Below, in pieces: positions 6,233-22,113 of a stretch of 41,826 nucleotides of DNA (within the stretch, counting starts at the first letter, position 1; each line of letters opens with the position of its first letter). Source of the DNA: Kiloniellales bacterium (GTDB lineage: Bacteria > Pseudomonadota > Alphaproteobacteria > Kiloniellales > J153); NCBI GenBank assembly GCA_036444495.1, contig JAZGBC010000150.1:1-41826 (forward strand), given 5' to 3'. The notes beneath the pieces were generated by a model. It was given only the letters and a program-made list of their open reading frames with translations, ran no database searches and was not told where the DNA came from. The position numbers were made by a program, and so were the translations under genes.

Positions 6233-7489
6233 TTAGCCTCTCTTGAAGATGCGGGTCCACGACTGCTTGGATTTCTTTTCGTCGGATGCCTGCTTTACCT
6301 GGCCGAATTCTGACGCGATGGATCGCAGGACCTTGCCGGCCTTGCCGCGTGTGCTGATCTGAGTCAGCGGTTTTCCCTCGTTGGCCGCCTTCTGGAAGGC
6401 TTTCTCGTCGTCCGGGATGACGTAGTCGATCTTGCGGCCGAGCGCTTTCTCAAAGTCCTTGGGCTGCATGGCCTGTTTCGTGCTGCCGATCCGGTTGGCG
6501 ACAACGCAAATCGGTGTGCCCAGGGCGACCTCCTCGATGTTGCCCACGATGCGCATGGAGTCGCGCAGACAGGGAAGCGTCATCTCGGTCACCAGGATGA
6601 TCCGGGTCGCATCCTCCATGACCCGCTGACGCACGGAAAAGGCCGAGCGCGGCAGGTCGACGATGATGTTGTCGTTGCTACGGCCCAAGGCGTCGAACAG
6701 AAGATCGACCGCATCGGGGTTGAAGTGGATCTCCTGTGACAGGGTTTCCTCGGTGGCCATGACCGAGAAGGTTTCGCTGAGTTTCGCCGTGGCGCTTTCG
6801 ATGAACAGACTGTCGATCCGGCCCGGGCTTTCCAGGGCTTCACGCAGGCCCCTTGTCGGCTCCAGGTCGAGCGAGAGCGCCACGGTGCCGAACTCCAGGT
6901 CCAGATCGACCAGGGCCGTCGTTTGTTTCATTTCCTGGCCCAGCACCCAAGCGAGATTGACCGCAAGGCTGCTGGCGCCGACGCCGCCACGCGAGCCGAT
7001 CACGGCGATCCTGTTGACCTTGTCGGATGCGGCGGCCTGCTCTTCCTGGCCCGCTCCCTGGCCGGAAGCCACAGGCTCCACGGCGCGTGCAAGGGCGGCG
7101 GCCAAGGCCTTTTCCGTAACCGGCTTGACCAGGTAGTCGGTGATGCCGGCGCCAACCATCTCGCGGTAGAGGTTGATGTCGTTGATCGTGCCGATACCGA
7201 TCAAGCGCGTTTCCTCGGTGAAGGCGGCGGTCAGGGACAGCATGGCGGTCAGCGGCGCCGAGGAGTCGCCGATATCGACGATGATCACCTTGGGCGGCGG
7301 GTTCTCCGCCAGGTACTCCAGAGCCTGCTGGCTGCCGCCGTCACGAATGATCGGCGCGTCGAAGAACTGACGCGCGACGGACTCGATCACGCCGTGCGTC
7401 TGGTTGTCGCTGACGAAGCCGACACACTCGGCCGCCGGCGTCGGCGCCAGATCGTTCTGTGGGTCGAGAAATCCTTCGGCCGAGCTCAT
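6233..7489 (-). CDS. cpaE: CpaE/TadZ: atypical receiver domain + MinD/ParA-like domain
   Basis: N-terminal receiver-like region (GTINDINLYRE....GITDYLVKP), degenerate Walker A GSRGGVGAS, LVDLDLEFGT, IVDLPR. Confidence 0.9.
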   Translation of the reverse strand: MSSAEGFLDPQNDLAPTPAAECVGFVSDNQTHGVIESVARQFFDAPIIRDGGSQQALEYLAENPPPKVIIVDIGDSSAPLTAMLSLTAAFTEETRLIGIGTINDINLYREMVGAGITDYLVKPVTEKALAAALARAVEPVASGQGAGQEEQAAASDKVNRIAVIGSRGGVGASSLAVNLAWVLGQEMKQTTALVDLDLEFGTVALSLDLEPTRGLREALESPGRIDSLFIESATAKLSETFSVMATEETLSQEIHFNPDAVDLLFDALGRSNDNIIVDLPRSAFSVRQRVMEDATRIILVTEMTLPCLRDSMRIVGNIEEVALGTPICVVANRIGSTKQAMQPKDFEKALGRKIDYVIPDDEKAFQKAANEGKPLTQISTRGKAGKVLRSIASEFGQVKQASDEKKSKQSWTRIFKRG

Positions 7490-8193
7490 TGAGTTCTCTC
7501 TATAGGTAAGGCCTTTGTCTTGCCGGCCCGGTAGCGTCGGATCGACCCGCCGGTAGCTGCAGCCTCGGCTGGGCCGGCCGCGCGGCCCCGGACCAGGTCG
7601 ACCGGATCAGCGATCATCTGTCCAAGCGTGGCGGAAGTGGTGCAGCTGAAGACCGCCGCCGGCCGCGTGGCGAACCCCGGTTGCGGCGTGCTGCAGTCGG
7701 GTTGGATAACCATGGCGCGGGTCACGGTGACCGCCACGGCTTCCTCGGGCTTGGCCAGCGTTGTGATGGGCCTGACCGGGACCTCGCTGCGCAAGCCGAG
7801 GCGGGTGATTTCAGTCTCGATCGCGGACAAACGTTCTACCGTCAGGGTGTCGTGATATCCGGTCTTATCGCGCGGCCCGTCGATCTCGATGCGGGCGCCT
7901 TGATGCACGCCGCTCTGCTGAAGAAACTCGAGAAGTTGGTCGAGCTCGCCGGCGGGCAGTTGCGATTCACCCGGCTGGAAACTGACTTGGTGGACAACCG
8001 TGATCTCCTCGACCTGGCTGTCCATGAAAGGCGGCCGCTGGCGCCAGTTCGCATGATCGAAGGTATGGCTGCTGAATGCCTCGATCGGGTTGCTCTGGCC
8101 TTCCGAGACGTGGCAACCGGCGAGCAGGAGCCCAACTCCTGTCAGCAGGATGGAGAGCTTGGCGAAACGAGTCTTGGACTTTGTCTCTGTCAT
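7486..8193 (-). CDS. cpaD: Pilus assembly lipoprotein CpaD
   Basis: ATG at 8193 with a GAGGAGG RBS; lipobox LLAGC; C-terminal C...F.C....LGQMIADP.DL..GR...PA motif; sits between cpaC and cpaE. Confidence 0.8.
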   Translation of the reverse strand: MTETKSKTRFAKLSILLTGVGLLLAGCHVSEGQSNPIEAFSSHTFDHANWRQRPPFMDSQVEEITVVHQVSFQPGESQLPAGELDQLLEFLQQSGVHQGARIEIDGPRDKTGYHDTLTVERLSAIETEITRLGLRSEVPVRPITTLAKPEEAVAVTVTRAMVIQPDCSTPQPGFATRPAAVFSCTTSATLGQMIADPVDLVRGRAAGPAEAAATGGSIRRYRAGKTKALPIERTQ

Positions 8194-8203
8194 CGAGCCC
8201 TCC

Positions 8204-9574
8204 TCAATCCAGAATATAGCCCGCCGTACCCGGCTGGCCGGCGATGCTGGGGCCCGCGGCGGGAACCGGGATCGTGCGCGAGGTTTGTGTCCGCAGCGCA
8301 ACGGCGTTCGGCGGCGACTTCGTATAGGGATCGGTCGGCAGCGGAATACGGTCGCTCACCGGCTTTACGATATAGGGCGTCACGATGATGACCAGCTCGG
8401 TCTCCCGCCGCTCGAAGCGCTCGCTTCTGAACAGCTGGCCGAGAATCGGGAGATCGCCTAGCCCGGGAATCCTGTTGACCAACTCTTGTGAGTTGTCCTG
8501 CAACAAGCCGGCGATGGCGAAGCTCTGCCCGGAGCCGAGCTCGACCGTGGTCTCCGCGCGGCGGATCGACAACGCGGGAATCTCGAACCCGTTGATGCTG
8601 ACGGCGCCCGCGGTGGACAAGGAGCTGACCTCGGGACGGACCCGCAGGTTGATCCGGTTGCCCGAGATGATGGTCGGTGTGAACGACAGGCTCACGCCGA
8701 AGGGGCGAAACTCGATAGTGACACGGTCGTCGGTCGAGGAAACGGGTATGGGGAACTCGCCGCCGGCCAGGAAGCTGGCCGTCTCGCCCGACAGGGCCGT
8801 CAGGTTGGGTTCGGCCAGGATCGTGATTAAGCCGTCGTCGGCGAGCGCATCGATTAGGCCGTCGACGCTATGATTGGCGCTCCCGAAGCCAATGCCCAGT
8901 AGGCTTGTGGCCTCTTCAGTCGGAAATCCCGTGACGAGGGCACCCGCGAATTTGCCGAAATCGAAAATGTAGTCCCAGTTGAACCCGAAGCGGTTGAGTA
9001 CGTCACGCGAAGCCTCGGCCACGCGGACCCGGAGGTTGATCTGGTTGGGCTCCGTGACCGCCAGACGGTTGATGACTTCCTCGCCGCGGCCGATAAAACG
9101 GGCGGCCAGGCGCCGGACGTTTTCCGCTTCCGTCGCGCTTTCCACGGCGCCGTCCAGGATGAGGGCGCCTTCGACCGAGGTGATGCCGATATCGGCTGCC
9201 GGAACCAGGGCATCGAGGGCCTGCTTCAGGCCCGTAATGTTGTGCTGCACCACGACGTCGGTGTTGAGGATGATGTTGTTGGCGGCGTCCAATGCGTAGA
9301 GCGAGGTCCGGCCGGGCCCGCGGCCGAAGAGATAAACCAATTGGTTGGTGCGAACCGTGACGTCGGCCACATTGGGGTTGACGATGAAAACCGAGGCCGC
9401 CGGCTGGGCCAGGCGGAGAAGCTTGCCCTGGTCGAGTTGGATCATGATCTGTTCGCCGGACGGGGGAACGATTTCTCCTGACTGCATCTGTTGCTGCGCC
9501 CCGGCCGCCAACGGCCAGAAGGCGGCGATGACGAGCAGAAGTCTCAGGATTCCCTTACAGCGCGTCTGGTTCAT
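8204..9574 (-). CDS. cpaC: Tad secretin CpaC/RcpA
   Basis: Signal peptide; QINLRVRVAE.SR, LAEPNLTALSGETASFLAGGEFPIP, RRAETTVELGSGQSFAIAGLL, P.LG.LF.S......TELVIIVTP. Confidence 0.95.
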   Translation of the reverse strand: MNQTRCKGILRLLLVIAAFWPLAAGAQQQMQSGEIVPPSGEQIMIQLDQGKLLRLAQPAASVFIVNPNVADVTVRTNQLVYLFGRGPGRTSLYALDAANNIILNTDVVVQHNITGLKQALDALVPAADIGITSVEGALILDGAVESATEAENVRRLAARFIGRGEEVINRLAVTEPNQINLRVRVAEASRDVLNRFGFNWDYIFDFGKFAGALVTGFPTEEATSLLGIGFGSANHSVDGLIDALADDGLITILAEPNLTALSGETASFLAGGEFPIPVSSTDDRVTIEFRPFGVSLSFTPTIISGNRINLRVRPEVSSLSTAGAVSINGFEIPALSIRRAETTVELGSGQSFAIAGLLQDNSQELVNRIPGLGDLPILGQLFRSERFERRETELVIIVTPYIVKPVSDRIPLPTDPYTKSPPNAVALRTQTSRTIPVPAAGPSIAGQPGTAGYILD

Positions 9575-10644
9575 TGTTCTTCCGACTTGTTTTCATCCGA
9601 GCTGCTTCCGCTCGCCGTCTGTTCACCGGGCTTCCGCACGTTGGGACCGGCGCCGGTCCCCGATGGCTGGGCGGTGAAGTCGAAGTTGAGCGAATCCATG
9701 CCGCCGAGGAGGCCACCGAGGAGGTTGCCGACCAGGCCCCCGATGCCTGCGCTTCCGACGCCGCCGCCCCGGTCGACCCGCACCGCCCTGACCTGACTTC
9801 CGCGCTGGACCACCACTGTCTGCTTGTTGTCTCGCCCCTGCTTCTTGGGCCCGGCAAGGAGACGGCTGGCCTCGGTATCCCAGGTGTGTGTGGTGCCGCG
9901 GGCCGGGTCGGGCTCGCCCAGGGGCTCGTCCGAGTTGGCCAGTCGCTCGAGCTCTTCCTCGTCCTTCGCCAAGCTGCGCAGCACGAGCGACAGTCTGCCC
10001 AGCTCGGTCACGACGGCCAGCATCTCGGCCTGCTTCGGCGTCACCTCCAGGGTGGCGTTCTTGCCGACTTTGGGTGAGTTCTTCTGGTCATTGATCCGGT
10101 GGTCGATGGCCAGGACGCGCACATTCGTGAGCACGGTTTCACTGGCCCGGCGCGTGCCGCTCGCGCGCTTGATCTTATGGGTCAAGATTATGTCAACCCG
10201 ATCGCCCGGGAAGACCAGACCGGAGATGCCCGAGGTGGCGTTGACCTTGATCGCCATGGCCCGGTAACCCGGCCGCAGCACGGCGGCCAGGAAGCCGCGC
10301 TCACCAGGCTGGATGATGCGGCCGACAGTGATCGGCTCGCCCGCGGTGATGCCCCGGCGCACGACCGAACCGATGAGCTCCTTCTGGTCCTGCTTGCCCT
10401 TGACCATGTACTTGGGATGCAGCTTTTCGTCCGGCCAGGCTTGCCAGGAGATGTGGTTTTCCTTGAGGAAAGTGCCGCTCGGCAGGTTTTTCTTCGCCAC
10501 CAGGACATAGGTCGCCTTGGGCGCCGGCGCCTCGGGAGCCGCGACCTGGACGCGCTGACTGTTGATCCAGCTGCGCGCCACCAGGCCGGTTCCCGCGGTG
10601 ATGAGAACGGCCGCCAGGATAAGGATTATATTTCGCACCGACAT
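9571..10644 (-). CDS. cpaB: Flp pilus assembly protein CpaB/RcpC
   Basis: N-terminal TM helix, SAF domain (VLVAKKNLPSG), PGYRAMAI.V....GISGLVFPGDRVDIILT, VLTNVRVLAID, TLEVTPKQAE.L. Confidence 0.93.
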   Translation of the reverse strand: MSVRNIILILAAVLITAGTGLVARSWINSQRVQVAAPEAPAPKATYVLVAKKNLPSGTFLKENHISWQAWPDEKLHPKYMVKGKQDQKELIGSVVRRGITAGEPITVGRIIQPGERGFLAAVLRPGYRAMAIKVNATSGISGLVFPGDRVDIILTHKIKRASGTRRASETVLTNVRVLAIDHRINDQKNSPKVGKNATLEVTPKQAEMLAVVTELGRLSLVLRSLAKDEEELERLANSDEPLGEPDPARGTTHTWDTEASRLLAGPKKQGRDNKQTVVVQRGSQVRAVRVDRGGGVGSAGIGGLVGNLLGGLLGGMDSLNFDFTAQPSGTGAGPNVRKPGEQTASGSSSDENKSEEQ

Positions 10645-10648
10645 AGCT

Positions 10649-11155
10649 TCAGTTTAACCTTAACAACGTAAACGCCACGTAAAGCCCGCCCACACCGATG
10701 GCGGCGCCATAGGGCATGGGCTGGCTGCCGAAATCCGGGTCGCTCCCGACCTGAAAGATCATGCTCGGGACCGGCGCCCTGGAGATCCGGTGATGGAGCC
10801 AGAGAAAGGCCACGATCACGCCGCCGGCCAGGGTCGTCAGAACGGTGTAGGGGAGGACCATGTCCGGACCGGCCCAAAGCGCGGCCGCGGCAAAGAGCTT
10901 GGCGTCACCCCCGCCACAGATGCGAAAGGAAAAGAGCAGAAAGCCCAGGGCCAACAGGCCGGTGGCGATGCTGAAGGACATGAGCCAGGCCACCGGCTCC
11001 GGCGCCGAGAGGACGTAGGCCGGATAGAGAAGGCCAATGGCCAGGCACAGCCGGTTCGGCACCGTGAAGGACAGGATGTCGCTCACGGACGCGGAAAAGA
11101 GCAATACCGCGAATGAAAGAATCGCTATGCCCGAGACGATCGCGGAGGCATCCAT
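10649..11155 (-). CDS. cpaA: Prepilin peptidase CpaA/TadV (A24 family)
   Basis: A.VSDI.SF.VPN, GGGDAKL.AA, MPYGAAI; start may be ATG 11155 or GTG 11170. Confidence 0.92.
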   Translation of the reverse strand: MDASAIVSGIAILSFAVLLFSASVSDILSFTVPNRLCLAIGLLYPAYVLSAPEPVAWLMSFSIATGLLALGFLLFSFRICGGGDAKLFAAAALWAGPDMVLPYTVLTTLAGGVIVAFLWLHHRISRAPVPSMIFQVGSDPDFGSQPMPYGAAIGVGGLYVAFTLLRLN

Positions 11156-11177
11156 CGGTTCCAATCGCACTGACTAG

Positions 11178-11220
11178 AAAAATAGGGGCCGGAGGCGAAA
11201 TGCACCCCGGCCCCTTTTTT
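11178..11220. terminator. Rho-independent terminator (possibly bidirectional) between flp and cpaA
   Basis: AAAAAT-AGGGGCCGG-N14-CCGGCCCCT-TTTTT; on the minus strand the stem is followed by ATTTTT. Confidence 0.8.
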
Positions 11221-11280
11221 CAGGTTTATTGGAGACGGCTCCCTAGAAAAGGGGCTCATCCCATTATTGTTCTTTCGGGT

Positions 11281-11469
11281 TTAGCTGCCGGAGGCCGCAA
11301 CCGCGTTGGTCAGCTCGTTAGCCACCGTCCCGAACAGGGTCTTCAGCGAGTTACCCATGGCGGTCAGAGCGCTAATAGCGGCGACCGACACGAGCGCGGC
11401 GATCAAGCCATACTCGATGGCGGTCGCGCCCGACTCGTCGCTGCAGAAATTCTCAAAACGCTTCAACAT
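11281..11469 (-). CDS. flp: Flp family type IVc major pilin
   Basis: DESG|ATAIEYGLIAALVSVAAI Flp motif; AAGGAG RBS upstream of ATG 11469. Confidence 0.96.
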   Translation of the reverse strand: MLKRFENFCSDESGATAIEYGLIAALVSVAAISALTAMGNSLKTLFGTVANELTNAVAASGS

Positions 11470-11528
11470 GAACGTTCTCCTTGTGTACAGCGCATCATCA
11501 TCAGATACCATTATTTAAAGGAAATACC

Positions 11529-11543
11529 TTAATAAAAAGTAAA
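11529..11543. promoter_or_regulatory. CtrA-like site upstream of flp (one mismatch)
   Basis: TTAA-taaaaag-TAAA versus consensus TTAA-N7-TTAA; AT-rich context, so a chance match is possible. Confidence 0.4.
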
Positions 11544-11770
11544 AGAACAACAGAAAGACAATCGCTTCGATAAGTATTCAGACTGTATTTGCGTCGTATT
11601 TTATTTGTATTTGCTTTGAGATAGGAAAGATAAGTCTAAATTATTATTTACTCAGCTAGCTCTTGGGTGAGCTCGGATATCTTGCCCCAATCCCTGAGGA
11701 AGACTCGTATAACTAACTAATTTTAAAGATAAATCTTTACTTGCACGGACGGCAGACCGGCGCGGCCCGT

Positions 11771-12910
11771 TTAAGCCGCCGTAAAATCCGCACCCGGTTG
11801 GGTCGTTCCTACAGCGGGCGCGGCCCGCCGGCTGGCGGCCAGGGCGCGGCCCACGGCCCACCAGATGAGCCAAGTGGCCAGGATCGCCACGTAGCCGTCG
11901 ATGGCGTAATGCCAGCCCAGGTGGACCGAGCCGACCAGGAGCAGGACGAGGAACAAGCAGCTGGCGATCCTCAAGGCCCGGTGCAGGGGCCAAGCCAGTA
12001 GGACCAGCAGGAAGCCCATGGCGATGTGCAGGCTGGGCATGGCCGAGATGCCGGTGCCGATGCCCAGCCGGCCGTTCTCGTACTGTTCGAGCAGGTGGGC
12101 CTGGATAAAGGCCGAAGGCAGATAGGTATCCGCGGCCACCGAGTCCAGATAGGCCATCAGCGGCGCGAAGGGGTTGGGGTCGCCGGCGAAATAGCCGTAG
12201 TAGACCGGGCCCGCCGAGGACAGGACGGTGGCCAGGCCGTTGGCCAGCAGGATCCAGCAGAGCAGCGTGGTGAGCAGGACCTGGAGGCGCCGCGGGTCGA
12301 GCGTGAAGGTCTGCCAGAACAGCAGGAACAACACCACTGCGTACCAGGGCAAGGAGTAGGCGTGCGATATGAGCGTGGTCACGGTTGGCGACCCTAGGAG
12401 GGGCTGCAGCAGCTCCCAGGGGTGATAGCCGCCGTGGAGCACCCGGTCGATCTCGGCCAGCGTCGGATCCCAGCTGAAGGGCGCGATGAGCGGGATCATG
12501 CGTTTGAGCGAGGTCACCGCCGAGTGGACGAGCGGCAGCAGGAAAAAAGCGGGCAGAGCGCTCATGAGCCGGCGGGAGGTCAGGACTTGGCTTCTCAGGT
12601 CGTCCCAGACGAAGCGCAGCGGTCGGCTCGGCCGGTTCTTGGCGATAAGCCAGATGGCGCGTCCCAGAATCCAAGCAACGGCGAAGAACAGGTAGAGGAA
12701 CGTCTGGAACCCGCTATAGAGCGACAGGGTCACGCTCTGGCCGTGCCATCGCCCGATGGTGAAGGCCAGCAGCAGATAGCTCACCGCCAGGGCGATGAAC
12801 CAGCGTTGTTCGTGCAGGACGGCCAGGAACTCGGCGGCGGATCGCCAGGCTCCGCCCCGCGCTTGGGCCGCGCGTGTCGTATCGGGCAGGCTGGCTTGTG
12901 CTCCGGCCAT
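11771..12910 (-). CDS. PAP2 superfamily membrane protein (PAP2_3 / Aur1 inositol-phosphorylceramide-synthase-like)
   Basis: Multiple TM helices; WD..LA..D..LHGG..PW, SAGP.YY, ISAMPSLH (C2 motif), VHLGWHYAIDG (C3 motif); start ATG 12910 or GTG 12931. Confidence 0.85.
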   Translation of the reverse strand: MAGAQASLPDTTRAAQARGGAWRSAAEFLAVLHEQRWFIALAVSYLLLAFTIGRWHGQSVTLSLYSGFQTFLYLFFAVAWILGRAIWLIAKNRPSRPLRFVWDDLRSQVLTSRRLMSALPAFFLLPLVHSAVTSLKRMIPLIAPFSWDPTLAEIDRVLHGGYHPWELLQPLLGSPTVTTLISHAYSLPWYAVVLFLLFWQTFTLDPRRLQVLLTTLLCWILLANGLATVLSSAGPVYYGYFAGDPNPFAPLMAYLDSVAADTYLPSAFIQAHLLEQYENGRLGIGTGISAMPSLHIAMGFLLVLLAWPLHRALRIASCLFLVLLLVGSVHLGWHYAIDGYVAILATWLIWWAVGRALAASRRAAPAVGTTQPGADFTAA

Positions 12911-13060
12911 CTCTTCGCTCCCCTGCGGCACAGGGTTGTCCGCGCGCGGCCGCCGCCTTTGGCCGTGGGACCAGAATTAGTCAGGCCCGGTTTTCAAATC
13001 GTTAATGGCGCTTCGATTGGAGAGCGCGCGGCCCGGGATGGGACCGGCATGAAGAGCCGT

Positions 13061-13534
13061 CTAGTTGATCACCATGGTGGAGCTGCGCCCGAACTGGATG
13101 GGATCGATCGGCAGGAACCCGGTCATGAGAAACTCGTAGGGATAGCCCACCCGTACCGTCACGGTACCGCCTTCGACGTTGCTCGGGGCCCAGGTGACGT
13201 TGACGGTCAATTGCTTGCTGTCCAGCCCCGGCGCCCGGTTCTGGACGTAGGACTTCACGTCCGACTCGGTGGCGACCGTGGGCTTGCCCTGGCCGCGGAT
13301 GGCCGCGTAACGCGCGCCCTCGGCGGCGGCGTGCTCGATGGTGGAGTTGATCCACATGGCCCGCCCGAAATCCATCACGCCGAACATGATCAGAAAGAAG
13401 GCCGGGGCGATGAGGGCGAATTCAACGGCGGCCTGGCCGCTCCGGTCCCTCAGGAGTCGCAGTCCGCGGCTCAGGCGTTCGAGCATTCGCTGCAATCCTT
13501 TTCCATATCCCATCGGGCCCGTGGCTTTCCGCAC
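13061..13534 (-). CDS. TadE-like minor pilin
   Basis: RDRSG|QAAVEFALIAP...MFGVMDFGR...HAAAEGARYA; exact start uncertain. Confidence 0.9.
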   Translation of the reverse strand: MRKATGPMGYGKGLQRMLERLSRGLRLLRDRSGQAAVEFALIAPAFFLIMFGVMDFGRAMWINSTIEHAAAEGARYAAIRGQGKPTVATESDVKSYVQNRAPGLDSKQLTVNVTWAPSNVEGGTVTVRVGYPYEFLMTGFLPIDPIQFGRSSTMVIN

Positions 13535-13535
13535 C

Positions 13536-14045
13536 TCACCGTACCCGCATGGTGTTGGTCGAGGTGACCGGGCGCGGCGAGGTAATGCCCGTGTACTGGA
13601 ACAGGAGGGGCACGTTGTTTGTCACGGTGACTTCCACGTACATGATGGGAAAGATCGAATCGTCGCTGCCTCCGGTACACAGGCCCGTGCAGTCGACCGC
13701 GCCGCTATCGCTGCATACGCAGTACTGCCGGGCGCTGACATCGAGCGCGTTCTGATCGTCGCTGGCATCGTTGCGCGCCGCCTGTTCCATTCCCGCGGTG
13801 TCGGCGGCCACGGAGGAATTCTGCGCCCCGTACTGGGTACCGGCGCGCGCGGCGTTGGCCACGGTGATCTTCTGCAGCCCGAGATTGCCGAAATCGAAGG
13901 CGCCGAGTCCTAGGGATACCAGGATGGGCAGCACGAAGGCGAATTCGATCGCCACGTTGCCGCCCCGGACCCGGCGAAATGCCTCGATCGCCCGAAGGGG
14001 CGCGGCGGCGATGCGGGCCGACTTGCGAATTGTTTCTTTGAGCAT
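13536..14045 (-). CDS. TadE/TadF-like minor pilin
   Basis: RGG|NVAIEFAFVLPIL...GAFDFG...ANAARAGTQYG; Cys-rich loop YCVC...C...C; GGAGG RBS before ATG 14045. Confidence 0.9.
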   Translation of the reverse strand: MLKETIRKSARIAAAPLRAIEAFRRVRGGNVAIEFAFVLPILVSLGLGAFDFGNLGLQKITVANAARAGTQYGAQNSSVAADTAGMEQAARNDASDDQNALDVSARQYCVCSDSGAVDCTGLCTGGSDDSIFPIMYVEVTVTNNVPLLFQYTGITSPRPVTSTNTMRVR

Positions 14046-14076
14046 CGTTTGAGTCCCTCCGCACAAGGATCCGCGA

Positions 14077-15378
14077 TTACTCGATAAGCGTGGCTTCGAT
14101 CAGCAGCGGGTTCTGCAGGATCGGGGTGTCCTCGAAGCCGCCGATGTTCGTGTTGCCGACGAAAGTGACCGTGTCGGCGATGATCAGCGAGGTCGAGGTG
14201 TTGAGCTCCGACCCCCCCGAGAATCTGACGTCCTGGTTGGGGAAGTAGAGGATGCCCTCCAGGTTCATGGTCGAACCGCCCGAGAAGCTATGGGTTATGT
14301 TGCCCACCGTGTTGCGGTCGTGATAGAAAAGGATGCCGGGCATGTCGGCGTTGCCGCCGTCGGCCGTCAGGGTCACGGTGCCGCCGGTGATGTTGATGTT
14401 GTCCGCCGTGCCCGAGTTCTCGGTCAGATAGAAGTTGACGTCCGTTCCGGTCACCGTGGATGCGCCGCCGATGCTGAGACCGGCGCCGTCCAGGATGTAG
14501 AGGCCCGGGTCGAAGTCCAGGGTTCCGCCGTTGACGGTGATTTTGCCGCAGTAGTGACCCGGCGTGAGCGTCAGGGTATCGCCGGCGCCGAGACTGTAGT
14601 TGGTGTTGTCGGTGCAGCCGCCCGGCACATAGCTGCTCGGCGGGCCGAGCGATCCCAGCGGGTCGCTCACCGGCGTCACGCCGGTGACCGGCGTGGAGCC
14701 GAAGCAGTCGCCGGAAGCGCCGCCCACCACCCTGACCTCGGTCGCGTTCAGGCAGGAGGTCGAACCGTTCTCGACCACGCCGCTGGAATTGGACGAGTTG
14801 GAGAGCACGCCGCAGCCCAGGTTCACTTCGGAGGTACCGGAGACCTTGATGGCGCCCGAATCGGTCGAATTGAGCGACCAGACGCAGGTGTCGTTGAGGG
14901 CCGCCATGGCGACCGCGCGCGCCGAGATGGTGGGCGTGCCGCTGAAGACCAGCTGGCTCAGGAAGCTCTGGCTGGTCCGCGTGATGATCACCTCTACCGA
15001 ATCGGTCGAATCTTTGTTCGGACCCGAGGTGGGTGGATAGTAGATTGTGATGGTGTCGCCGTTGGCGTCGGTGAAGCCGTTGACGCCCGCATCAGCGGTG
15101 GCGGAGGCCAGGACCTCGCTCTCCACGCTGTTGGAGCGCAGTATCTGCAAGGCGCCGGAAATGGCGGCGGAATCGGCGGCGCTCTGCGCCATGCGCGCCT
15201 GCGAATACCAGATGCCCACATCGACCGACAGCCCGGCGAAGCCCAACAGCATGGGGGCCGCGATCGCGGTATAGACAAAGATGGTCCCGCGGCGGTCCCG
15301 CCAAAATCGGTGTAGATTGCGTCGTAGGATGCGATTGATCGCCTTCATCACCTGCACGCCTCTTTTCGCCTCTTCCAT
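14077..15378 (-). CDS. TadG-related pilin/adhesin (N-terminal Tad domain, Gly/Ser/Thr/Asn-rich C-terminal beta domain)
   Basis: RDRRG|TI..YTAI..P.LLGFAGLSVDVG..Y......Q.AADSAA..GA; C-terminal LTPGHYCG, FDPGLYILDG, GILF..DR, GILYFPNQ.V.FSG repeats; start 15378 or 15348. Confidence 0.87.
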   Translation of the reverse strand: MEEAKRGVQVMKAINRILRRNLHRFWRDRRGTIFVYTAIAAPMLLGFAGLSVDVGIWYSQARMAQSAADSAAISGALQILRSNSVESEVLASATADAGVNGFTDANGDTITIYYPPTSGPNKDSTDSVEVIITRTSQSFLSQLVFSGTPTISARAVAMAALNDTCVWSLNSTDSGAIKVSGTSEVNLGCGVLSNSSNSSGVVENGSTSCLNATEVRVVGGASGDCFGSTPVTGVTPVSDPLGSLGPPSSYVPGGCTDNTNYSLGAGDTLTLTPGHYCGKITVNGGTLDFDPGLYILDGAGLSIGGASTVTGTDVNFYLTENSGTADNINITGGTVTLTADGGNADMPGILFYHDRNTVGNITHSFSGGSTMNLEGILYFPNQDVRFSGGSELNTSTSLIIADTVTFVGNTNIGGFEDTPILQNPLLIEATLIE

Positions 15379-15491
15379 CGACTCCAGACCCCGTCCGGTC
15401 GATGCCGGATTTCATGGCAGGTGGCTGCCATTCACCCGCGATCGCCCGAGACACAACGGTCTTCCACGCACATGAATTATGCGAAAGCCGG

Positions 15492-15507
15492 GTTAAGGAC
15501 TCGTTTA
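15492..15507 (-). promoter_or_regulatory. CtrA-like binding site upstream of tadG, containing a GANTC site
   Basis: Minus strand reads TAAA-cgagtcc-TTAAC (one mismatch to TTAA-N7-TTAAC), followed 10 nt later by CATAAT; GACTC at 15498-15502. Confidence 0.6.
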
Positions 15508-15657
15508 GGATTGAAGTGGATTTAAGATTTATTCTTGCGGCTGGAATAATATTTCTAGTAATAACACCTATTGTTTACTTGCGGTTGGCGGGGCGGCTGT
15601 GGCGGTTCCGATTCCCGCGCAGGACGCCGGCCATGGCTATCAAAGCCTTAACGGGCT

Positions 15658-17628
15658 ATGCCCATACTCCCGCCCTCGAAACGCTGGCGCCCGGCCTCGA
15701 AACAGATACGGACCGAACCCTTGGCGTCCTCCGATAGTTCAGACCTAAGCACTCTTCGTCACAGCGGCGCACAATGGCGCCAGCTGGACGACGGCCAGGT
15801 GTTCGCGGCCGTGGCCATGGCGTTGTTGCTGGTGATCGTCATCCAGGTGGGCATGGTCCTGCGGGGCGACGCCTCGGTGCTCGATGGTGTACTGGCCGAC
15901 CCCGACGCCTACTTGCGCTTGGCCCGAATCGACCGTCTGGCGGAAACCGGCGCCTGGTTCGATTCGGTAGAGTCCCGGATCAACCCGCCCGGCGGCTTCG
16001 CGCTGCATTGGACCCGGCCGCTCGATGCCCTGATTCTCGGAGGGGCCTACCTGGGCAGCCCGTTCCTAGGCTTTGACAAGGCCTTGTTCTGGTCCGGCGC
16101 CGTCGTCAGCCCCCTGTTGCAGTTGCTCTCCCTGATCGCGCTCGTCTGGGCTAGCCGGCCGGTCCTGCCGCGCCTTTGCCGCTGCCTTCTGGCCTTCTTC
16201 TATGTGGCTCAGCCCGGCATCCTCGCCATGTTCATTATGGGCCGCGCCGATCACCACGGCCTGCTTATCCTGTGCTGTATCCTTCTGCTCGGCCTGACCA
16301 TCCGGCTGCTTCTGAATCCGGACGACCTGGGCAACGCCGTCTGGGCCGGGCTCGTTGCCGCCTTCGCGATTTGGATCAATGTGGAGGCGCTGCTCTTCGT
16401 CGTCGTGACCATAGCCGCGCTCGGACTGTTCTGGCTGCTGGTCGAGGCCCGGCTGGCGCGCGCCTGCCTGGTATATGCCGCGGCGATTTTGGCCAGTCTG
16501 GGCGCGGCCCTGCTGGCCGAACGAGGCGTTGCCGGCCTGGGTGACTATGAGATCGACCGGCTATCCATCGCCCACATCGTTCTGTTCGCCGCCAATTTCA
16601 TCTACTGGGCCGCGATGGACCTGGTGCAGCGGCGGGGCCGGGGATCATCGGCCCTGGGGCCGCGGGCCGTGTGGGCCGGGGCCGGCATTGCGGTGACCCT
16701 GGGCTTGTTGTGGTGGATGCACCCGGCCTTCTTCGCCGATCCCATGGCTCTGGGCGACGAGCTTTATCTGACCAAGCACATGGCCAATATCGAGGAGCTT
16801 CAGCCCCTGTTCGCAGCCCCCGGAGAGGGCGGGAGCTGGCCCAAGGCGCTGGCCAGGCCGGTCCTGTGGCTCGGTATCGCGCTGCCGGCGGTTCCCTGGT
16901 TGCTCCACCTGATGCACCGATCGCCGGGGCCGGAGCGCCGGGTCTGGGTCTTCTTCGCGCTCGGCCTGTTGCTGTTCACGCCGTTCGGCGTCCTGCATTT
17001 ACGCTGGGTCATGTATCCGGAGCTTTTTCTCGTGATTCCCTACGCGGCCCTGGCCGGGGCGTTGGTGGCCAGGCTTGCCGACGCCTTGAGCGAAAACGCG
17101 CTGAGCATCGTCCGGCCTCTTGTGATCGCGGGGTTGGCGATCTGGTTCTACGTCCCGACGTTTGCCACCCAGGCCGGCCCGCCGGTAGGCGCGTCGGAGC
17201 AAAGCGCCGTGAGCTGTCCGCTTCGCACCTTGGCCCCGGTCCTGGACGATCCGGCCGGCCTGGGCGCCGCGCCCAAGCGCGTCCTCGCCTTTATCGATTT
17301 CGGTCCCGAGCTGATCTACCGCACGAAGCATTCCGTCTTCGCTATCCCGAACCACCGGCGCCAGCCGGGCTTTACGCTGGGTTACGGGATCATGACCGCG
17401 ACCGACTTCGGCCGGGCGCGGGACGATCTGCTGCTGGCCGGCATCGATTTGATACTGATCTGTCCGGGGTCGGTCGAAGGCTGGTTCTATTCGACCGAGG
17501 AACCGGGCCGCACCCTGTACCAGACCCTGGCGGCCGATGAGCCGCCCGCCTTCCTCGAACCGATCGCCCTGCCCGGCGTCCTGGCCGAGCACTTTCGGCT
17601 GTTCAGCCTGCGCAAAAGCGCGGAGTGA
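15658..17628 (+). CDS. Polytopic GT-C fold membrane protein, STT3/AglB/PglB oligosaccharyltransferase-like
   Basis: About a dozen hydrophobic segments plus a soluble C-terminal domain; DPDAYLRL, LHWTRPLD, GRADHH, NIEELQPL and FIDFGPEL..RT.HSV.A.PNHR occur in the order of the STT3 motifs; true start may be downstream (about 15799-15818). Confidence 0.65.
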   Translation: MPILPPSKRWRPASKQIRTEPLASSDSSDLSTLRHSGAQWRQLDDGQVFAAVAMALLLVIVIQVGMVLRGDASVLDGVLADPDAYLRLARIDRLAETGAWFDSVESRINPPGGFALHWTRPLDALILGGAYLGSPFLGFDKALFWSGAVVSPLLQLLSLIALVWASRPVLPRLCRCLLAFFYVAQPGILAMFIMGRADHHGLLILCCILLLGLTIRLLLNPDDLGNAVWAGLVAAFAIWINVEALLFVVVTIAALGLFWLLVEARLARACLVYAAAILASLGAALLAERGVAGLGDYEIDRLSIAHIVLFAANFIYWAAMDLVQRRGRGSSALGPRAVWAGAGIAVTLGLLWWMHPAFFADPMALGDELYLTKHMANIEELQPLFAAPGEGGSWPKALARPVLWLGIALPAVPWLLHLMHRSPGPERRVWVFFALGLLLFTPFGVLHLRWVMYPELFLVIPYAALAGALVARLADALSENALSIVRPLVIAGLAIWFYVPTFATQAGPPVGASEQSAVSCPLRTLAPVLDDPAGLGAAPKRVLAFIDFGPELIYRTKHSVFAIPNHRRQPGFTLGYGIMTATDFGRARDDLLLAGIDLILICPGSVEGWFYSTEEPGRTLYQTLAADEPPAFLEPIALPGVLAEHFRLFSLRKSAE

Positions 17629-17673
17629 CGAGTCGATCCGATGAAGAAGGGCCACCCGGCCGGGCGGGTGGCG

Positions 17674-18417
17674 TCAACCGATCCGGCTATTGGACAGGAA
17701 GATCGTCCAATTGAAAATCCCGGGTAGGGTAGGGGCCGGTTCGGGCGGTTGCGGCGCGCGTGCGGGTTGCGCCGCCGTCGCTGCCGAGGGGACCTTGAGC
17801 CGCAGACAGCTACGCAGCTTTTGACTTTCGGGCTCCAGCCCAACGTCCCCGACGAGATCTTCCAGGGGACGGGTCAGGATGTCGGGCAGCTTCTGGAACG
17901 GTTCCGCCGGGGCCGAAAGGGGCGCGGCCGGGGAGGGAGCGGCCGCTTGCGGCGCACCGTTCTGATGGGGCACGGCGCGTTCGAGCAGGTCCAGGATGGC
18001 CACGAGGACCGGTTTGATATCCTCCGTCACCTCGTCGCGCAGCGATTTCTCGAAGCTATTCTGGCTGGGGCCGGCGCCGGGAATGCCGGCGCGTTCGCTG
18101 AGCCGCTCCACCTGGCTCTGCAGTTGCTGACGGAGGACCTGTTCGCGCTGCTGGATTTGCAGGAAGGTCTCGATGCGATCCAGCAAGCGCGCGTTCTCGG
18201 CCGACAGCCGCGCGATCTCGCCCGACTGAACGGTAATGATGCGGTCCAGCGCCTCGTAGGAAACGTCCGGCAAAGCGGCCGCCGGTTGCTCGCTGCCGGC
18301 GGCTGATGCGCCCTGTACCTCGACTGGCGAGGAGGGCTGCGCCGGGCCGCTCTCAGGCTCGGCCGCTGCGTCCGCCGCCGTGGCGGCGCTCGAGCTGTTG
18401 TTCGAGGACTTGTTCAC
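17674..18417 (-). CDS. Hypothetical coiled-coil protein
   Basis: Low-complexity N-terminus; heptad segment QSGEIARLSAENARLLDRIE...QQLQSQVERL; immediately downstream of the TPR-SPOR gene. Confidence 0.65.
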   Translation of the reverse strand: MNKSSNNSSSAATAADAAAEPESGPAQPSSPVEVQGASAAGSEQPAAALPDVSYEALDRIITVQSGEIARLSAENARLLDRIETFLQIQQREQVLRQQLQSQVERLSERAGIPGAGPSQNSFEKSLRDEVTEDIKPVLVAILDLLERAVPHQNGAPQAAAPSPAAPLSAPAEPFQKLPDILTRPLEDLVGDVGLEPESQKLRSCLRLKVPSAATAAQPARAPQPPEPAPTLPGIFNWTIFLSNSRIG

Positions 18418-18439
18418 GGCGAAGAGTTCCGTCTCTTTC

Positions 18440-19930
18440 CTAACCGGCAGAGGAACCGCCCGCTTCCGGCTGTTCCTTGACGATCAGGCAATCCATGCCG
18501 CGTTCCTTGAGCGCCATACACAGGAGGTCGGCCGCGTCCTTGGTCTGGAGACCCGTGCGCAGGCGATAAAATATCCCCTTGTCGGCGCCGAGGTCGGCGC
18601 GCCGTACTTCCGGCTCGATCTCGGCCAGCAGGTCGGGCGCCAGGCGGCGCAGTTCTATCCAGCCTTTCCGCGCCCGCTCCTCGCTGCGGTAGGAGGCGAA
18701 CTGAACGGCGTAGACAACCGCCGGCACCCACTGGGTCATCTCCGGCTGGCTGGACGGCAGCGCCGCAACCCGGGATTCGCGCTGCGAGATGGCGTTATCG
18801 GCTGCCGTGGACGTGCCGCCATTCACGTCGACGGAGAGGTAGTCGCCGAACAGGGCGACGGACCGGTCGGCATCCGTCACGCCCGTGGTCAAGGCGGCGG
18901 TCTGCGTCTGGGTGGGTGAGGCCGGTTCATTGCTGGAGCCCGAATCGGTTTGGTTTTCGCCCCAATCCGGATAGGACCGGCCGGCCGTGGCGTCGGTATC
19001 GAACATGTCATCGCTGGCGTCGGGCTTGCGGGCGTACTGTTCACGCGTCGCCGGCGAGAGAGCGATCGGGGCCGAGGCCGGTTCCTTGAGCGCCGTGGAG
19101 TCGACCGGGCCGGAAACCGCTGCAAGATTCCCGACGGGCATATCGTCGGCCGTGGCGGCCGTCTGGGCCCCGTCCGGCCCGGGTGCGCCGCCGAGCATTT
19201 CGAGGGAGGCGAGGGCCACATCCGACAGGTGGGTGCTGTACAGGCCCTGGGCGAGATCGAGGTTCTGGCGGCTGGTATCGTCGGCCGCCGGATTGGCGGC
19301 GACTTCCTCGAGGATCGTGATGCCTTCCACGTAGCGGCCGCTTAATGCCAGGGACAGGCCCAGGTTGCTGCGCAGCGAGAGATCGCGCGGCGATGCCTTG
19401 AGCCCGGCCCCGAAGGCCTCCTGGGCGGCGGCGTGTGCGCCCAGCAGTCCATTCGCGACCCCGAGGGCATTGTAGATGCGCGGATCTTCGGGCCTGTGCT
19501 TTCGCGCGGTCTCGAGATGGGTCAACGCCAAGTCGTACTGCTCGAGCGAGACATAGGCTTTGCCCAGCCGGTAGTGTGCCTCGGTGTTCTCGGGCGAGGT
19601 ATCCAGAATACGCTTATACGCGATGGTCGCCTGGCCGATCTCGCCCATCTGGGTCAGGATCTCGGCCAGCTTGAACAGGGGCTCGGGGTTCGTGGGGTCG
19701 AGTTGGTGTGCGCGATCGCAAAGCCCGATCGCGGTCGCCAGGTCTCCCCTGCTGTAGAGCCTATCGCAGTATTGAATAAGCTGCCCCGTGCCGCCATCGT
19801 ACTTCTTGTCGATGGCGCCATAGGCCGTCGGAGCCGGGTTGGACAGACCGGCGCAGCTCGCCGTGACGAGCATTGCGCCCAAGGCCGTGACAATCTGTGC
19901 CGGCCGGTTCCTGAGGTGCGTCTTTTTCAT
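18440..19930 (-). CDS. TPR-repeat (TadD-like) lipoprotein with C-terminal SPOR domain
   Basis: Lipobox LVTASC; TPRs (AHYRLGKAY, IYNALGVA, LRSNLGLSLALSG, SRQNL.LA.GL); SPOR AVQFASYRSEERA..GW..L....RADLG..G.FYRLR.G....A..LC..LK.RG.DC; probable start ATG 19930. Confidence 0.88.
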   Translation of the reverse strand: MKKTHLRNRPAQIVTALGAMLVTASCAGLSNPAPTAYGAIDKKYDGGTGQLIQYCDRLYSRGDLATAIGLCDRAHQLDPTNPEPLFKLAEILTQMGEIGQATIAYKRILDTSPENTEAHYRLGKAYVSLEQYDLALTHLETARKHRPEDPRIYNALGVANGLLGAHAAAQEAFGAGLKASPRDLSLRSNLGLSLALSGRYVEGITILEEVAANPAADDTSRQNLDLAQGLYSTHLSDVALASLEMLGGAPGPDGAQTAATADDMPVGNLAAVSGPVDSTALKEPASAPIALSPATREQYARKPDASDDMFDTDATAGRSYPDWGENQTDSGSSNEPASPTQTQTAALTTGVTDADRSVALFGDYLSVDVNGGTSTAADNAISQRESRVAALPSSQPEMTQWVPAVVYAVQFASYRSEERARKGWIELRRLAPDLLAEIEPEVRRADLGADKGIFYRLRTGLQTKDAADLLCMALKERGMDCLIVKEQPEAGGSSAG

Positions 19931-20059
19931 CGTCTTCTGCCCTTTGCACACACGACTTTGTTATTCGTTCGCCGGCCCCTTTTTGTTTCTTCCCATTCTT
20001 CCTGATTGCGGGTTTATCGGGGCCGGGGTAGTTGTGGATTCACATCCCTTCTTTCTCCA

Positions 20060-21214: not shown

Positions 21215-21940
21215 CTATGCGGTCTCTTTTCTGGGCGGCCCGGAGTACTGGGACAGGGCCGCCGTCTGCCGCGCCTGGAGGCGCGCGCCGGCCCGGATCT
21301 GCTGCCCCTGTGGCCGGGTGCAGCGATCGAGCCGGTCGGCGAGGTAGTCCCAGAGCTGGATCATTTCCTCGGTCGAGCGCTTGGCGCCCGAGATCTCCAT
21401 GACGGTCCGCCCGTCGATCATGCTGGCGGCGTATTCCGTCCGGTGATGGACGGTGACCGGCGCCACGGTCCCGTGCTGCGACAGGGCGATGGCGGCCTCG
21501 CCGGTGATGCGCGCCCGCGGCGTCGCGCCGTTGATGACGAAAACCAGGGGCTTGCTCACCTTCTCGCAGAGATCCACGGTGGCGCCCGCGGCCCTCAGAT
21601 CGTGCGGGCTCGGCCGGGTCGGGATGACCACCAGGTCGCAGACCTTGATGACCTGCTGGATGGTCGCGGTGATTGCCGGCGGCGTATCGAATATCAGGAG
21701 CTCGATGCCGAGATCGCGCATCTTCTGCAGGTCTTCCTGCAGGCGGGAAATGAAGGTCTGCGCGAAGACCGGGGTCTCGGCCCGGCGGGCGTTCCACCAG
21801 TCCGACAGGCTGCCTTGGGGGTCCGCGTCGATGACCGCGACCGGGCCCGCCCCGGCCCGTTCGGCCTGAACCGCCATATGTCCCGCCAGGGTCGTCTTGC
21901 CCGACCCGCCTTTCTGGGACGAAAAGGCCATCACCCGCAT
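21215..21940 (-). CDS. Orphan ParA/MinD family ATPase (short, no N-terminal HTH)
   Basis: MRVMAFSSQKGGSGKTT (deviant Walker A), IDADPQGSL..WW, FDTPP, VIPTRPSPHDL; GAGGAG RBS before ATG 21940. Confidence 0.93.
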   Translation of the reverse strand: MRVMAFSSQKGGSGKTTLAGHMAVQAERAGAGPVAVIDADPQGSLSDWWNARRAETPVFAQTFISRLQEDLQKMRDLGIELLIFDTPPAITATIQQVIKVCDLVVIPTRPSPHDLRAAGATVDLCEKVSKPLVFVINGATPRARITGEAAIALSQHGTVAPVTVHHRTEYAASMIDGRTVMEISGAKRSTEEMIQLWDYLADRLDRCTRPQGQQIRAGARLQARQTAALSQYSGPPRKETA

Positions 21941-22113
21941 GTGAGTCGCGCTCCTCAATGACGCGGCAGCCGCGTCCGCTAAACCGCACGGGGCGCCGCC
22001 GCGGCCTTTGCTCCGGAGCCCCGGATGCCGCCTGCGGCGCCGACCGTTTTTTTGCCTGTTGCGTGAACTGAATAGATAGTCCTCCACAACACTAGAGAAA
22101 GTAGCCAAGAATA

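Follow-up and report, generated by a model that had tools for sequence, protein, structure and literature searches.

Glycosylation of type IVa pilins is carried out by TfpW, the GT-C arabinosyltransferase of Pseudomonas aeruginosa group IV, by PilO/TfpO, and by the PglL O-oligosaccharyltransferases; in archaea, this role falls to AglB for type IV pilins and archaellins, and AglJ is a dolichyl-phosphate hexose transferase. PglB belongs to a pgl glycan-assembly cluster, uses pyrophosphate-linked donors and requires a D/E-x-N-x-S/T sequon; the Gtr systems consist of the flippase GtrA, the family 2 glycosyltransferase (GT2) GtrB and the GT-C enzyme GtrC, and ArnC/ArnT are comparable. Tad/Flp (type IVc) pili drive adhesion and biofilm formation across a very wide bacterial range, an archaeal ancestry has been proposed for Tad systems, and a literature search returned no publication linking an STT3-like or PAP2 enzyme to tad loci. 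Here, we analyze a stretch of 41,826 nucleotides (contig JAZGBC010000150.1 of assembly GCA_036444495.1; hereafter, the window) from a Kiloniellales bacterium, the source genome being a 2.4-Mb metagenome-assembled genome (MAG) that is 81% complete. The window holds a complete Tad/Cpa locus with two membrane enzymes at its pilin end: a PAP2_3 enzyme of 386 aa (11771..12931, minus strand; PF14378, E 4.2e-23, 82.6 bits against a cut-off of 27) and a polytopic GT-C glycosyltransferase of 656 aa with an STT3/AglB fold (15658..17628, plus strand), which belongs to an uncurated family, was assigned by predicted structure and is referred to below as STT3-like. Our reading, to which we give a probability of roughly 0.6, is that the pilin end of the locus has gained two accessory inner-membrane enzymes that represent two independent and recurrent classes of Tad accessory, each of them a candidate for pilus modification.

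Both enzymes keep company with tad genes beyond the window. For the STT3-like gene, a pattern scan with one genome per species gave 41 loci, and tblastn refound the gene in 40 of them (L037 was lost). A locus counted as Tad-linked when its stored flanks included flp or two or more core tad genes, and by this definition 23 of the 40 loci are Tad-linked; among the 17 others, full 10-kb flanks on both sides were available only in L032, L033, and L039. In a quick maximum-likelihood tree of 72 rows, in which related sequences share labels so that the counts are descriptive, the window protein belongs to the Tad-linked part of its family: it lies in a 27-row clade (Shimodaira–Hasegawa-like approximate likelihood ratio test 94) with 18 Tad-linked rows, the rest being seven rows with only GT2 or methyltransferase neighbors (five of them on contigs of at most 8.4 kb) and two rows with neither. 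Other parts of the tree contain Tad-linked groups as well. The tad gene closest to the STT3-like gene is flp in 25 of 31 Tad-linked loci, at a distance of less than 1 kb in 10 of them, and a GT2, methyltransferase, or GtrA gene adjoins the STT3-like gene in 27 of the 40 loci.

For the PAP2_3 gene, we drew on 400 further genomes sampled from the same class, in which both enzyme families were counted. At an E cut-off of 1e-5, PAP2_3 relatives were present in 20 of these genomes, and all 27 places were fetched. In nine of the 20, tad genes are found no more than about 10 kb from a copy (G050, G242, G084, G097, G194, G004, G375, G025, and G285), the link in G285 being weak, through TadE-like and TPR genes only. 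A metagenome scan of the best 80 of at least 590 relatives yielded 79 loci, of which 32 are Tad-linked; where the total flank reached at least 6 kb the fraction was 20/33. Overall, roughly half of the PAP2_3 loci under study have tad genes as neighbors, and the PAP2_3 gene usually adjoins flp, the prepilin peptidase gene, or TadG-like genes with Tad and VWA domains. In a FastTree phylogeny of 92 rows, Tad-linked copies are scattered over the whole tree, and the window copy falls in a five-row clade with four Tad-linked members. These counts bear on the possibility that adjacency is meaningless, two genes with nothing in common being passengers next to a mobile 'widespread colonisation island'. 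Even close relatives do differ in the genes found between flp and the STT3-like gene, and a transposase sits beside one unlinked STT3-like homolog (L032), as this possibility would have it. A tad locus with 10 kb on each side amounts to only about 1% of a genome, and linkage at 9/20 and 20/33 for PAP2_3 and in 18 of 27 rows for the STT3-like clade is far above that figure, making the passenger reading extremely improbable.

In a check that had been set beforehand, the two enzymes were found together no more often than chance predicts. The STT3-like family profile was found in 49 of the 400 genomes, and both families are present in two of the 20 PAP2_3 carriers (G047 and G293) versus 2.45 expected, with the two genes on different contigs or about 770 kb apart. 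The STT3-like family was detected in none of the nine genomes with Tad-linked PAP2_3, and an STT3-like gene occurred in none of the 79 metagenome PAP2_3 loci; conversely, a PAP2_3 homolog was present in only four of the 40 STT3-like loci (L006, L007, L030, and L031). Co-occurrence at chance level and the absence from the 79 loci therefore suggest two independently recruited Tad accessories rather than a coupled cassette, and the loci that hold both (the window, L006, L007, L030, and L031) are what two independent accessories would sometimes give. The first-pass annotation had seen in this block a dedicated cassette for modification of Tad pili, which might serve phage evasion or adhesion tuning. 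The link of each enzyme to Tad loci extends beyond the window, as the counts of 23/40 for STT3-like and of 9/20 genomes and 32/79 loci for PAP2_3 document; a single coupled cassette is not supported by these data.

We nevertheless considered such a coupled cassette in its strongest form, in which the STT3-like enzyme would move a glycan from undecaprenyl pyrophosphate to pilins and the PAP2 enzyme would serve the same pathway, for instance by recycling undecaprenyl pyrophosphate once it is released, or through the trimming of a lipid-sugar intermediate that bears phosphate. Undecaprenyl-pyrophosphate phosphatases are known among PAP2 enzymes, PgpB being one, and the PAP2_3 model matches the PgpB fold (Z 10.2). 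The five shared loci include distant lineages (PAP2 identity 31-44%), a 78-member Actinomycetota cluster in the Atlas consists of GT87 (GT-C) plus PAP2_3 fusions, and in two loci (L103 and L109) a PAP2_3 paralog follows a module of GT2, GtrA, and an unnamed membrane protein. Against this stand the co-occurrence counts, three close relatives (L004, L005, and L008) in which the STT3-like gene lies beside tad genes without PAP2, and a PAP2_3 fold that is nearer to head-group transferases than to PgpB. Moreover, the donor module of the relatives is of the monophosphate (AglJ/GtrB) type, and thus no pyrophosphate would be left for PAP2 to recycle. We regard one shared pathway for the two enzymes, tempting as it is, as decidedly unlikely, and this corrects how the block would be read at first sight. 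Separately, one GT87 gene was seen as a neighbor among the PAP2_3 loci.

Having set the coupled cassette aside, we return to two independent accessories and to what each may do. The STT3-like protein has 123 detectable relatives in a large protein collection, nearly all unnamed and a few with a precomputed PF02516 match or an 'Stt3' label; the family is bacterial and mostly alphaproteobacterial. Its AlphaFold model, built on an alignment of 31 relatives, has a predicted local distance difference test score (pLDDT) of 90 and a predicted template modeling score of 0.91. With this model, Foldseek ranks 1-16 are all AglB/STT3 (E 8.6e-13 to 1.5e-9, template modeling scores 0.58-0.68), followed by DPY19, PglB, and then other GT-C enzymes. 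A second aligner, giving Z scores, aligned 576 of the 656 residues with Archaeoglobus fulgidus AglB at Z 30.0 and a root-mean-square deviation of 3.6, with further AglB matches at Z 27.3, 26.9, and 26.8, eukaryotic STT3 at 23.9-26.6, DPY19 at about 22, PglB at 20.8-21.6, PMT at 17-18, and ArnT at 16.8. The modeled architecture comprises a multi-helix membrane domain with long first and fifth periplasmic loops and a small C-terminal periplasmic domain that resembles the AglB-S2 domain (Z 12.9), and the predicted topology is consistent with the N-terminus in and the C-terminal domain out.

At the level of sequence, the same relationship is far less visible. With the E threshold relaxed to 1, the window protein still matched no Pfam family, PF02516 included; TIGR04154 (archaeo_STT3) reached E 0.04 with 12.2 bits against a cut-off of 450, and a single-sequence search of the PDB gave a chance match only (E 1.5). 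Across the family, PF02516 is within reach of three of 31 members at E up to 0.1, the best E being 8.6e-7, and one member reaches an AglB_core-like profile. A search with the family profile picks up two short AglB paralogs through their C-terminal domains (3vgp, E 8.3e-5; 3vu0, E 1.8e-3), so that the sequence link to AglB is thin but specific. The label 'OST-like' (oligosaccharyltransferase-like) that the first-pass annotation attached to this gene is therefore borne out by the fold and has no Pfam match behind it. Three motifs mark STT3, AglB, and PglB: an acidic one of the DxD type in the first periplasmic loop, another of the form D-x-D/H, and, in the fifth loop, one of the TIxE/SVSE type. 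In 31 STT3-like sequences, D83, R87, D123, D198, E243, D300, E380, R449, and H566 are invariant, and the motifs D81-P-D83, D198-H199-H200 (within R-A-D-H-H), and I378-E379-E380 (within N-I-E-E) are invariant or nearly so and sit, like R449 and H566, in loops that the positive-inside rule predicts to be periplasmic. These motifs may be the counterparts of the AglB catalytic residues. The window segment F545-I-D-F-G549 aligns with WWDYG of 3vgp and 3vu0, with only D547 and G549 conserved; the family profile reads l-i-D-l-G there, a pattern of xxDxG, and hence the motif that reads the Ser/Thr of the sequon is not kept.

Related lineages suggest where the sugar donor comes from. A module of four genes recurs, comprising the STT3-like GT-C enzyme, a GT2 of 330-400 aa, an S-adenosylmethionine methyltransferase, and an unnamed small membrane protein of 310-325 aa; it lies beside flp-cpa operons in MAGs titled Inquilinaceae, Geminicoccaceae, and Kiloniellaceae (L011:5636-11899, L015:9896-14500, L003:96-4829, and L009:568-5670), and in loci of the Inquilinaceae and Geminicoccaceae type the donor genes are usually placed between the STT3-like gene and flp. 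GtrA accompanies the STT3-like gene in other branches. In NCBIfam the module GT2 comes closest to AglJ (E 1e-27 to 1e-33), PpgS, dolichyl-phosphate hexose transferase, and ArnC, without reaching the cut-off of any of them, and by type it would be a polyprenyl-monophosphate sugar synthase; the GT2/GtrA company in relatives therefore implies a single sugar on undecaprenyl monophosphate. The first-pass annotation had stated that the window lacks glycan biosynthesis and flippase genes and that any donor must be encoded elsewhere. The first statement was borne out for every large open reading frame (ORF) scanned, and the second agrees with searches of the source genome for GT2 and GtrA, which found no donor there either. 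The three GT2 genes of that genome are HpnB and two of the TIGR04283 type; the best AglJ-like match had an E of 3.7e-4, and no GtrA, Bac_transf, ortholog of the small membrane protein, or close methyltransferase was found. Because the assembly is 81% complete, this does not amount to absence of the donor from the genome. Among the five closest relatives, three genomes encode a GT2 ortholog (at least 49% identity) elsewhere, a fourth yields a weak match, and the search of the fifth found none. We propose that in related lineages the donor is apparently made by the adjacent AglJ/GtrB-type GT2, the methyltransferase, and the small membrane protein, and that the corresponding genes of the window genome would be unlinked or would lie in its unassembled part.

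Several side observations concern the STT3-like family. Paralog pairs, tandem or convergent, are present in seven loci (L013, L030, L036, L038, L040, L127, and L144), and those of L036, L038, and L040 lie 3' of a GtrA gene and a flavin amine-oxidase-like gene without tad genes nearby. One MAG carries two copies, one with the GT2-methyltransferase module (L003) and one beside a tad locus (L004). In the closest relative, three tandem TadG-like paralogs of 423 aa are situated between the PAP2_3 and STT3-like genes (L007:5698-9817), and in L006 a response-regulator-MipZ fusion (11827-13224) lies directly 3' of the STT3-like gene.

With respect to the acceptor, our working model is that the STT3-like enzyme would transfer a sugar from a polyprenyl-phosphate-linked donor, at the periplasmic face, to a Tad pilus subunit before assembly; the acceptor would most likely be the tail of the Flp pilin, with the pseudopilins as an alternative, and the site would be other than the classical N-x-S/T sequon. 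Canonical N-glycosylation of Flp as the default was dropped, given a window Flp without N-x-S/T and patchy sequons in relatives, where some linked Flp pilins have N-A-T, N-Q-T, or N-L-T and many have none. The degenerate WWDYG motif fits a non-canonical acceptor. A predicted complex of the STT3-like protein (residues 40-656) with Flp reached a median score of 0.30 against a mark of 0.32, without controls, and was not used.

The distribution of sequons also bears on a different account, in which both enzymes would remodel the envelope and not pilins, tad adjacency reflecting co-regulation during surface attachment. In this account, the acceptor of the STT3-like enzyme would be TadG-type pseudopilins, secretin-complex proteins, lipopolysaccharide, or glucans, and the PAP2_3 enzyme would make or hydrolyze a membrane lipid. 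TadG has 10 N-x-S/T sequons versus 5.9 expected from its composition (P about 0.05) and Flp has none; the STT3-like gene diverges from tadG, not flp, in the window, L004, L007, and L008; and 38 of the 46 STT3-like genomes fetched from the class sample lack tad adjacency. Tad-linked PAP2_3 genes, moreover, often lie beside TadG-like genes with Tad and VWA domains, lipid enzymes accompany them in a few loci (two LPG_synthase_TM and two PEMT-like), and L108 has a diacylglycerol kinase gene. What argues for pilins instead is that in 25 of the 31 Tad-linked loci no tad gene is nearer to the STT3-like gene than flp, even where no tadE, tadF, or tadG lies within 10 kb, and that tad linkage recurs over deep branches of both families, beyond what co-regulation would predict. 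On balance, we consider envelope remodeling unlikely.

Turning to the PAP2_3 enzyme, which as an independent accessory would act separately from the STT3-like one, the conserved site is intact. Across 23 sequences, K143, P299, H302, H341, and D345 are invariant and S300 is nearly so, and the Lys, the PSxH motif (299-302), and the HYxxD motif (341-345) are all intact in the window protein. The catalytic loops are poor in Lys and Arg, and thus the active site is predicted to be periplasmic. With the predicted structure (pLDDT 86), Foldseek returned only weak matches (E 0.037 and 0.09), with Aur1 and another inositol phosphorylceramide (IPC) synthase on top. The second aligner placed IPC synthases first (9vj4, Z 16.0; 9ivc, Z 15.4; over 249 residues), these being moderate values for helical membrane proteins; the likeness to IPC synthases rests on this aligner; lower matches were LpxE (Z 11.6), G6PC1 (11.2), PgpB, and a sphingomyelin-synthase-related protein (10.1). 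The sequence profile compared with solved structures gave no match at E up to 1. Close clusters in the Atlas are listed as PAP2_3 or 'Aur1/Ipt1 domain' proteins. The fold match to IPC synthases would support the Pfam assignment and is not a functional call. We suggest that the enzyme is probably a phosphoryl or phospho-head-group transferase, or a hydrolase, acting on a lipid at the site of pilus assembly, and that it may put a phospho-form on pilins.

A few PAP2_3 loci have lipid enzymes nearby. In four Tad-linked loci these are PEMT/ICMT-like (two) or LPG_synthase_TM (two) proteins (L117:8777-9490, L239:11523-12143, L104:1769-2734, and L252:6320-7594), and in one locus a diacylglycerol kinase gene follows a tandem PAP2_3 pair (L108:7790-8683). 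Such neighbors would fit a reaction that consumes phospholipid and releases diacylglycerol. In an Acidobacteriota-titled MAG, a sulfatase-family (PF00884) protein of 631 aa is encoded directly 5' of the PAP2_3 homolog (L031:4142-7122), with an STT3-like gene and a tad operon at a distance of about 3 kb; PptA, which transfers phospho-forms to Neisseria pilin, belongs to the sulfatase/alkaline-phosphatase superfamily, as PF00884 does.

The most specific version of our model would have Tad pili served by two dedicated, hitherto unrecognized modification enzymes, an AglB-like enzyme without WWDYG and a PAP2_3 enzyme that acts on protein. The former would glycosylate the Flp pilin of 45-50 residues at a non-canonical site using a lipid-monophosphate sugar; the latter would move phosphocholine, phosphoethanolamine, or phosphoglycerol from a phospholipid to the pilin by the chemistry of sphingomyelin and IPC synthases. 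We know of no PAP2 enzyme that modifies a protein, and we hold this version as a whole to be quite improbable. If it were true, the AglB-like enzyme would parallel, in bacteria, the N-glycosylation of archaeal pilins, fitting the proposed archaeal ancestry of Tad, and the PAP2_3 enzyme would be the first protein-modifying enzyme of the PAP2 type and might account for the phosphorylcholine on Flp pili, so far without an explanation. In Aggregatibacter actinomycetemcomitans, phosphorylcholine reactivity depends on flp1, and Flp1 is stated to be glycosylated with reference to earlier work; in the available portion of that report only pptA homologs are named as candidate enzymes, and neither modification is given an enzyme (PMC6182317).

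Several observations weigh against two independent, pilus-directed accessories. In the class sample, 20-kb regions were obtained for 46 of the 49 STT3-like carriers (G082, G283, and G384, with fragmentary matches, were omitted) and only eight are Tad-linked, many others having the gene beside GT2 or GtrA; the family is therefore one of lipid-linked-sugar transferases with several acceptor contexts. Similarly, 13 of the 33 well-flanked PAP2_3 loci (about 40%) have no Tad link, similarity in fold to an IPC synthase would be no proof of function, and the GT87-PAP2_3 fusions hint that PAP2_3 can work with GT-C enzymes, contrary to strict independence. As for the substrates, the window lacks the donor module and searches of the 81%-complete genome did not reveal it, the window Flp is free of sequons, and 25 aligned Flp pilins encoded beside either enzyme show no invariant Asn, Ser, or Thr beyond the processing site, so that no acceptor site can be named. 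A cryo-electron microscopy map of the Caulobacter Tad pilus has, in the available portion of its description, no extra density on the pilin (PMC10710030), from which it follows that Flp modification would not be general. Finally, gene identities, modeled folds, conserved motifs, and synteny counts are what has been shown, and pilin modification, with its donor, acceptor, and chemistry, is deduced from them.

As to the layout of the locus itself, gene calls in the window were based on Pfam and NCBIfam profile searches. At the pilin end, on the minus strand, lie flp, encoding the major Flp pilin (ORF 11281..11511; PF04964, E 3.8e-18), the PAP2_3 gene, genes for a TadE-like pseudopilin (13061..13534; PF07811, E 3.8e-18) and a TadE/TadF-like pseudopilin (13536..14066; PF07811, E 7.8e-11), and tadG, encoding a TadG-like large pseudopilin of 433 aa (14077..15378; PF13400, E 7.7e-8). 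In the gene map, an intergenic region (15379..15657) separates tadG from the divergent STT3-like gene. All six genes are where the first-pass annotation had put them. Its description of the block as standing apart from the motor genes has to be abandoned, for the minus-strand genes run unbroken into cpaA-tadC (10649 down to 2548): cpaA (10649-11170), cpaB (9571-10644), cpaC (8204-9574), cpaD (7486-8301), cpaE (6233-7489), cpaF (4520-6226), tadB (3522-4529), and tadC (2548-3525), the order of transcription being tadG, the two TadE-like genes, PAP2_3, flp, and then cpaA to cpaF, tadB, and tadC. From tadC to cpaA, the Pfam/NCBIfam matches are T2SSF (twice), T2SSE, CbiA/ParA, Pilus_CpaD, Secretin, RcpC, and Peptidase_A24. 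Thus, the Tad/Flp (type IVc) locus is complete, with matches for Flp, CpaA/TadV, CpaB/RcpC, the secretin, CpaE/TadZ, CpaF/TadA, TadB, TadC, and TadE/F/G.

Two start sites deserve comment. The flp start is probably the ATG at 11469, 14 codons inside the ORF, since homologs start at the Met of MLKRF; this gives a prepilin of 62 aa with predicted cleavage after the Gly that precedes ATAIEYG. The STT3-like gene has an alternative GTG start at codon 48, and one public (Atlas) record begins at residue 48. Between tadG and the STT3-like gene, a sigma-70-like site on the plus strand (15522-15550) is a consensus match only; promoter-like sites number four versus 1.6 expected, terminator-like sites are no more frequent than chance, and an Rfam search of 10000-20000 found no RNA family. 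Beyond the STT3-like gene, two minus-strand genes encode an unnamed protein of 247 aa (17674-18417) and a TadD-like protein with TPR families and SPOR (18440-19951; SPOR E 5.7e-6), both with homologs in the corresponding position in L006. The remaining large ORFs encode proteins of Suf, MttB, dimethylglycine-dehydrogenase, CoA-ligase, and regulator type. A ParA/MipZ-type ATPase gene lies near the Tad locus (21215-22108), and a T5orf172/MUG113-domain protein at the contig end (250-1071), with 53% G+C versus about 65% elsewhere, may be foreign DNA.

Two testable candidate families emerge: PAP2_3, and the uncurated GT-C family of AglB-like enzymes, which contains a Tad-linked clade and is accompanied in relatives by a recognizable donor module. 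If confirmed, these enzymes would explain variation in the surface chemistry of Tad pili, with consequences for adhesion, aggregation, and pilus-specific phages, and would extend STT3-type and PAP2-type chemistry to new acceptors.

Among known systems, the window STT3-like protein is closest to AglB/STT3 (GT66, PF02516), with which it shares the fold over its whole length and may share the acidic residues of the first loop and the IxE of the fifth loop; it differs in its identity of only about 13-14%, in lacking a PF02516 match, in having F-I-D-F-G for WWDYG, and in the linked pilin being without a sequon. Campylobacter PglB is more distant, although it has the same GT-C/STT3 fold and a bacterial periplasmic setting, and the window enzyme has tad genes for neighbors, to which relatives add a GT2 of the monophosphate type. 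With the Gtr and Arn systems, the STT3-like relatives have in common a polyprenyl-phosphate GT2, sometimes GtrA, and a small membrane protein; however, the fold is that of STT3 and not of GtrC/ArnT, the setting is a pilus locus rather than O-antigen or lipid A, and the GT2 and flippase do not accompany the window gene. TfpW, TfpO, and PglL resemble the arrangement proposed here in being polytopic membrane glycosyltransferases encoded beside a major pilin gene, with a lipid-linked donor and action in the periplasm before assembly, whereas here the pilin is of the Tad/type IVc kind, 45-50 residues long and headless, and the enzyme is of another family, with no Wzy_C or ArnT-type Pfam match (ArnT Z 16.8). 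The PAP2_3 protein resembles Aur1 and the sphingomyelin synthases, head-group transferases of the PAP2_3 and PAP2_C families, in its PF14378 membership, its His-His-Asp site, and its IPC-synthase fold, and differs in its identity of 13-14% and in being a bacterial enzyme without a Kei1-type partner or evidence of ceramide, with a pilus locus as its partner. PptA of Neisseria is of the sulfatase/alkaline-phosphatase superfamily, in contrast to the PAP2 enzyme considered here. The likeness to Neisseria and to A. actinomycetemcomitans Flp1 lies in the product, namely pilins that carry phospho-head-groups such as phosphocholine, as described in the available portion of the Flp1 report (PMC6182317).

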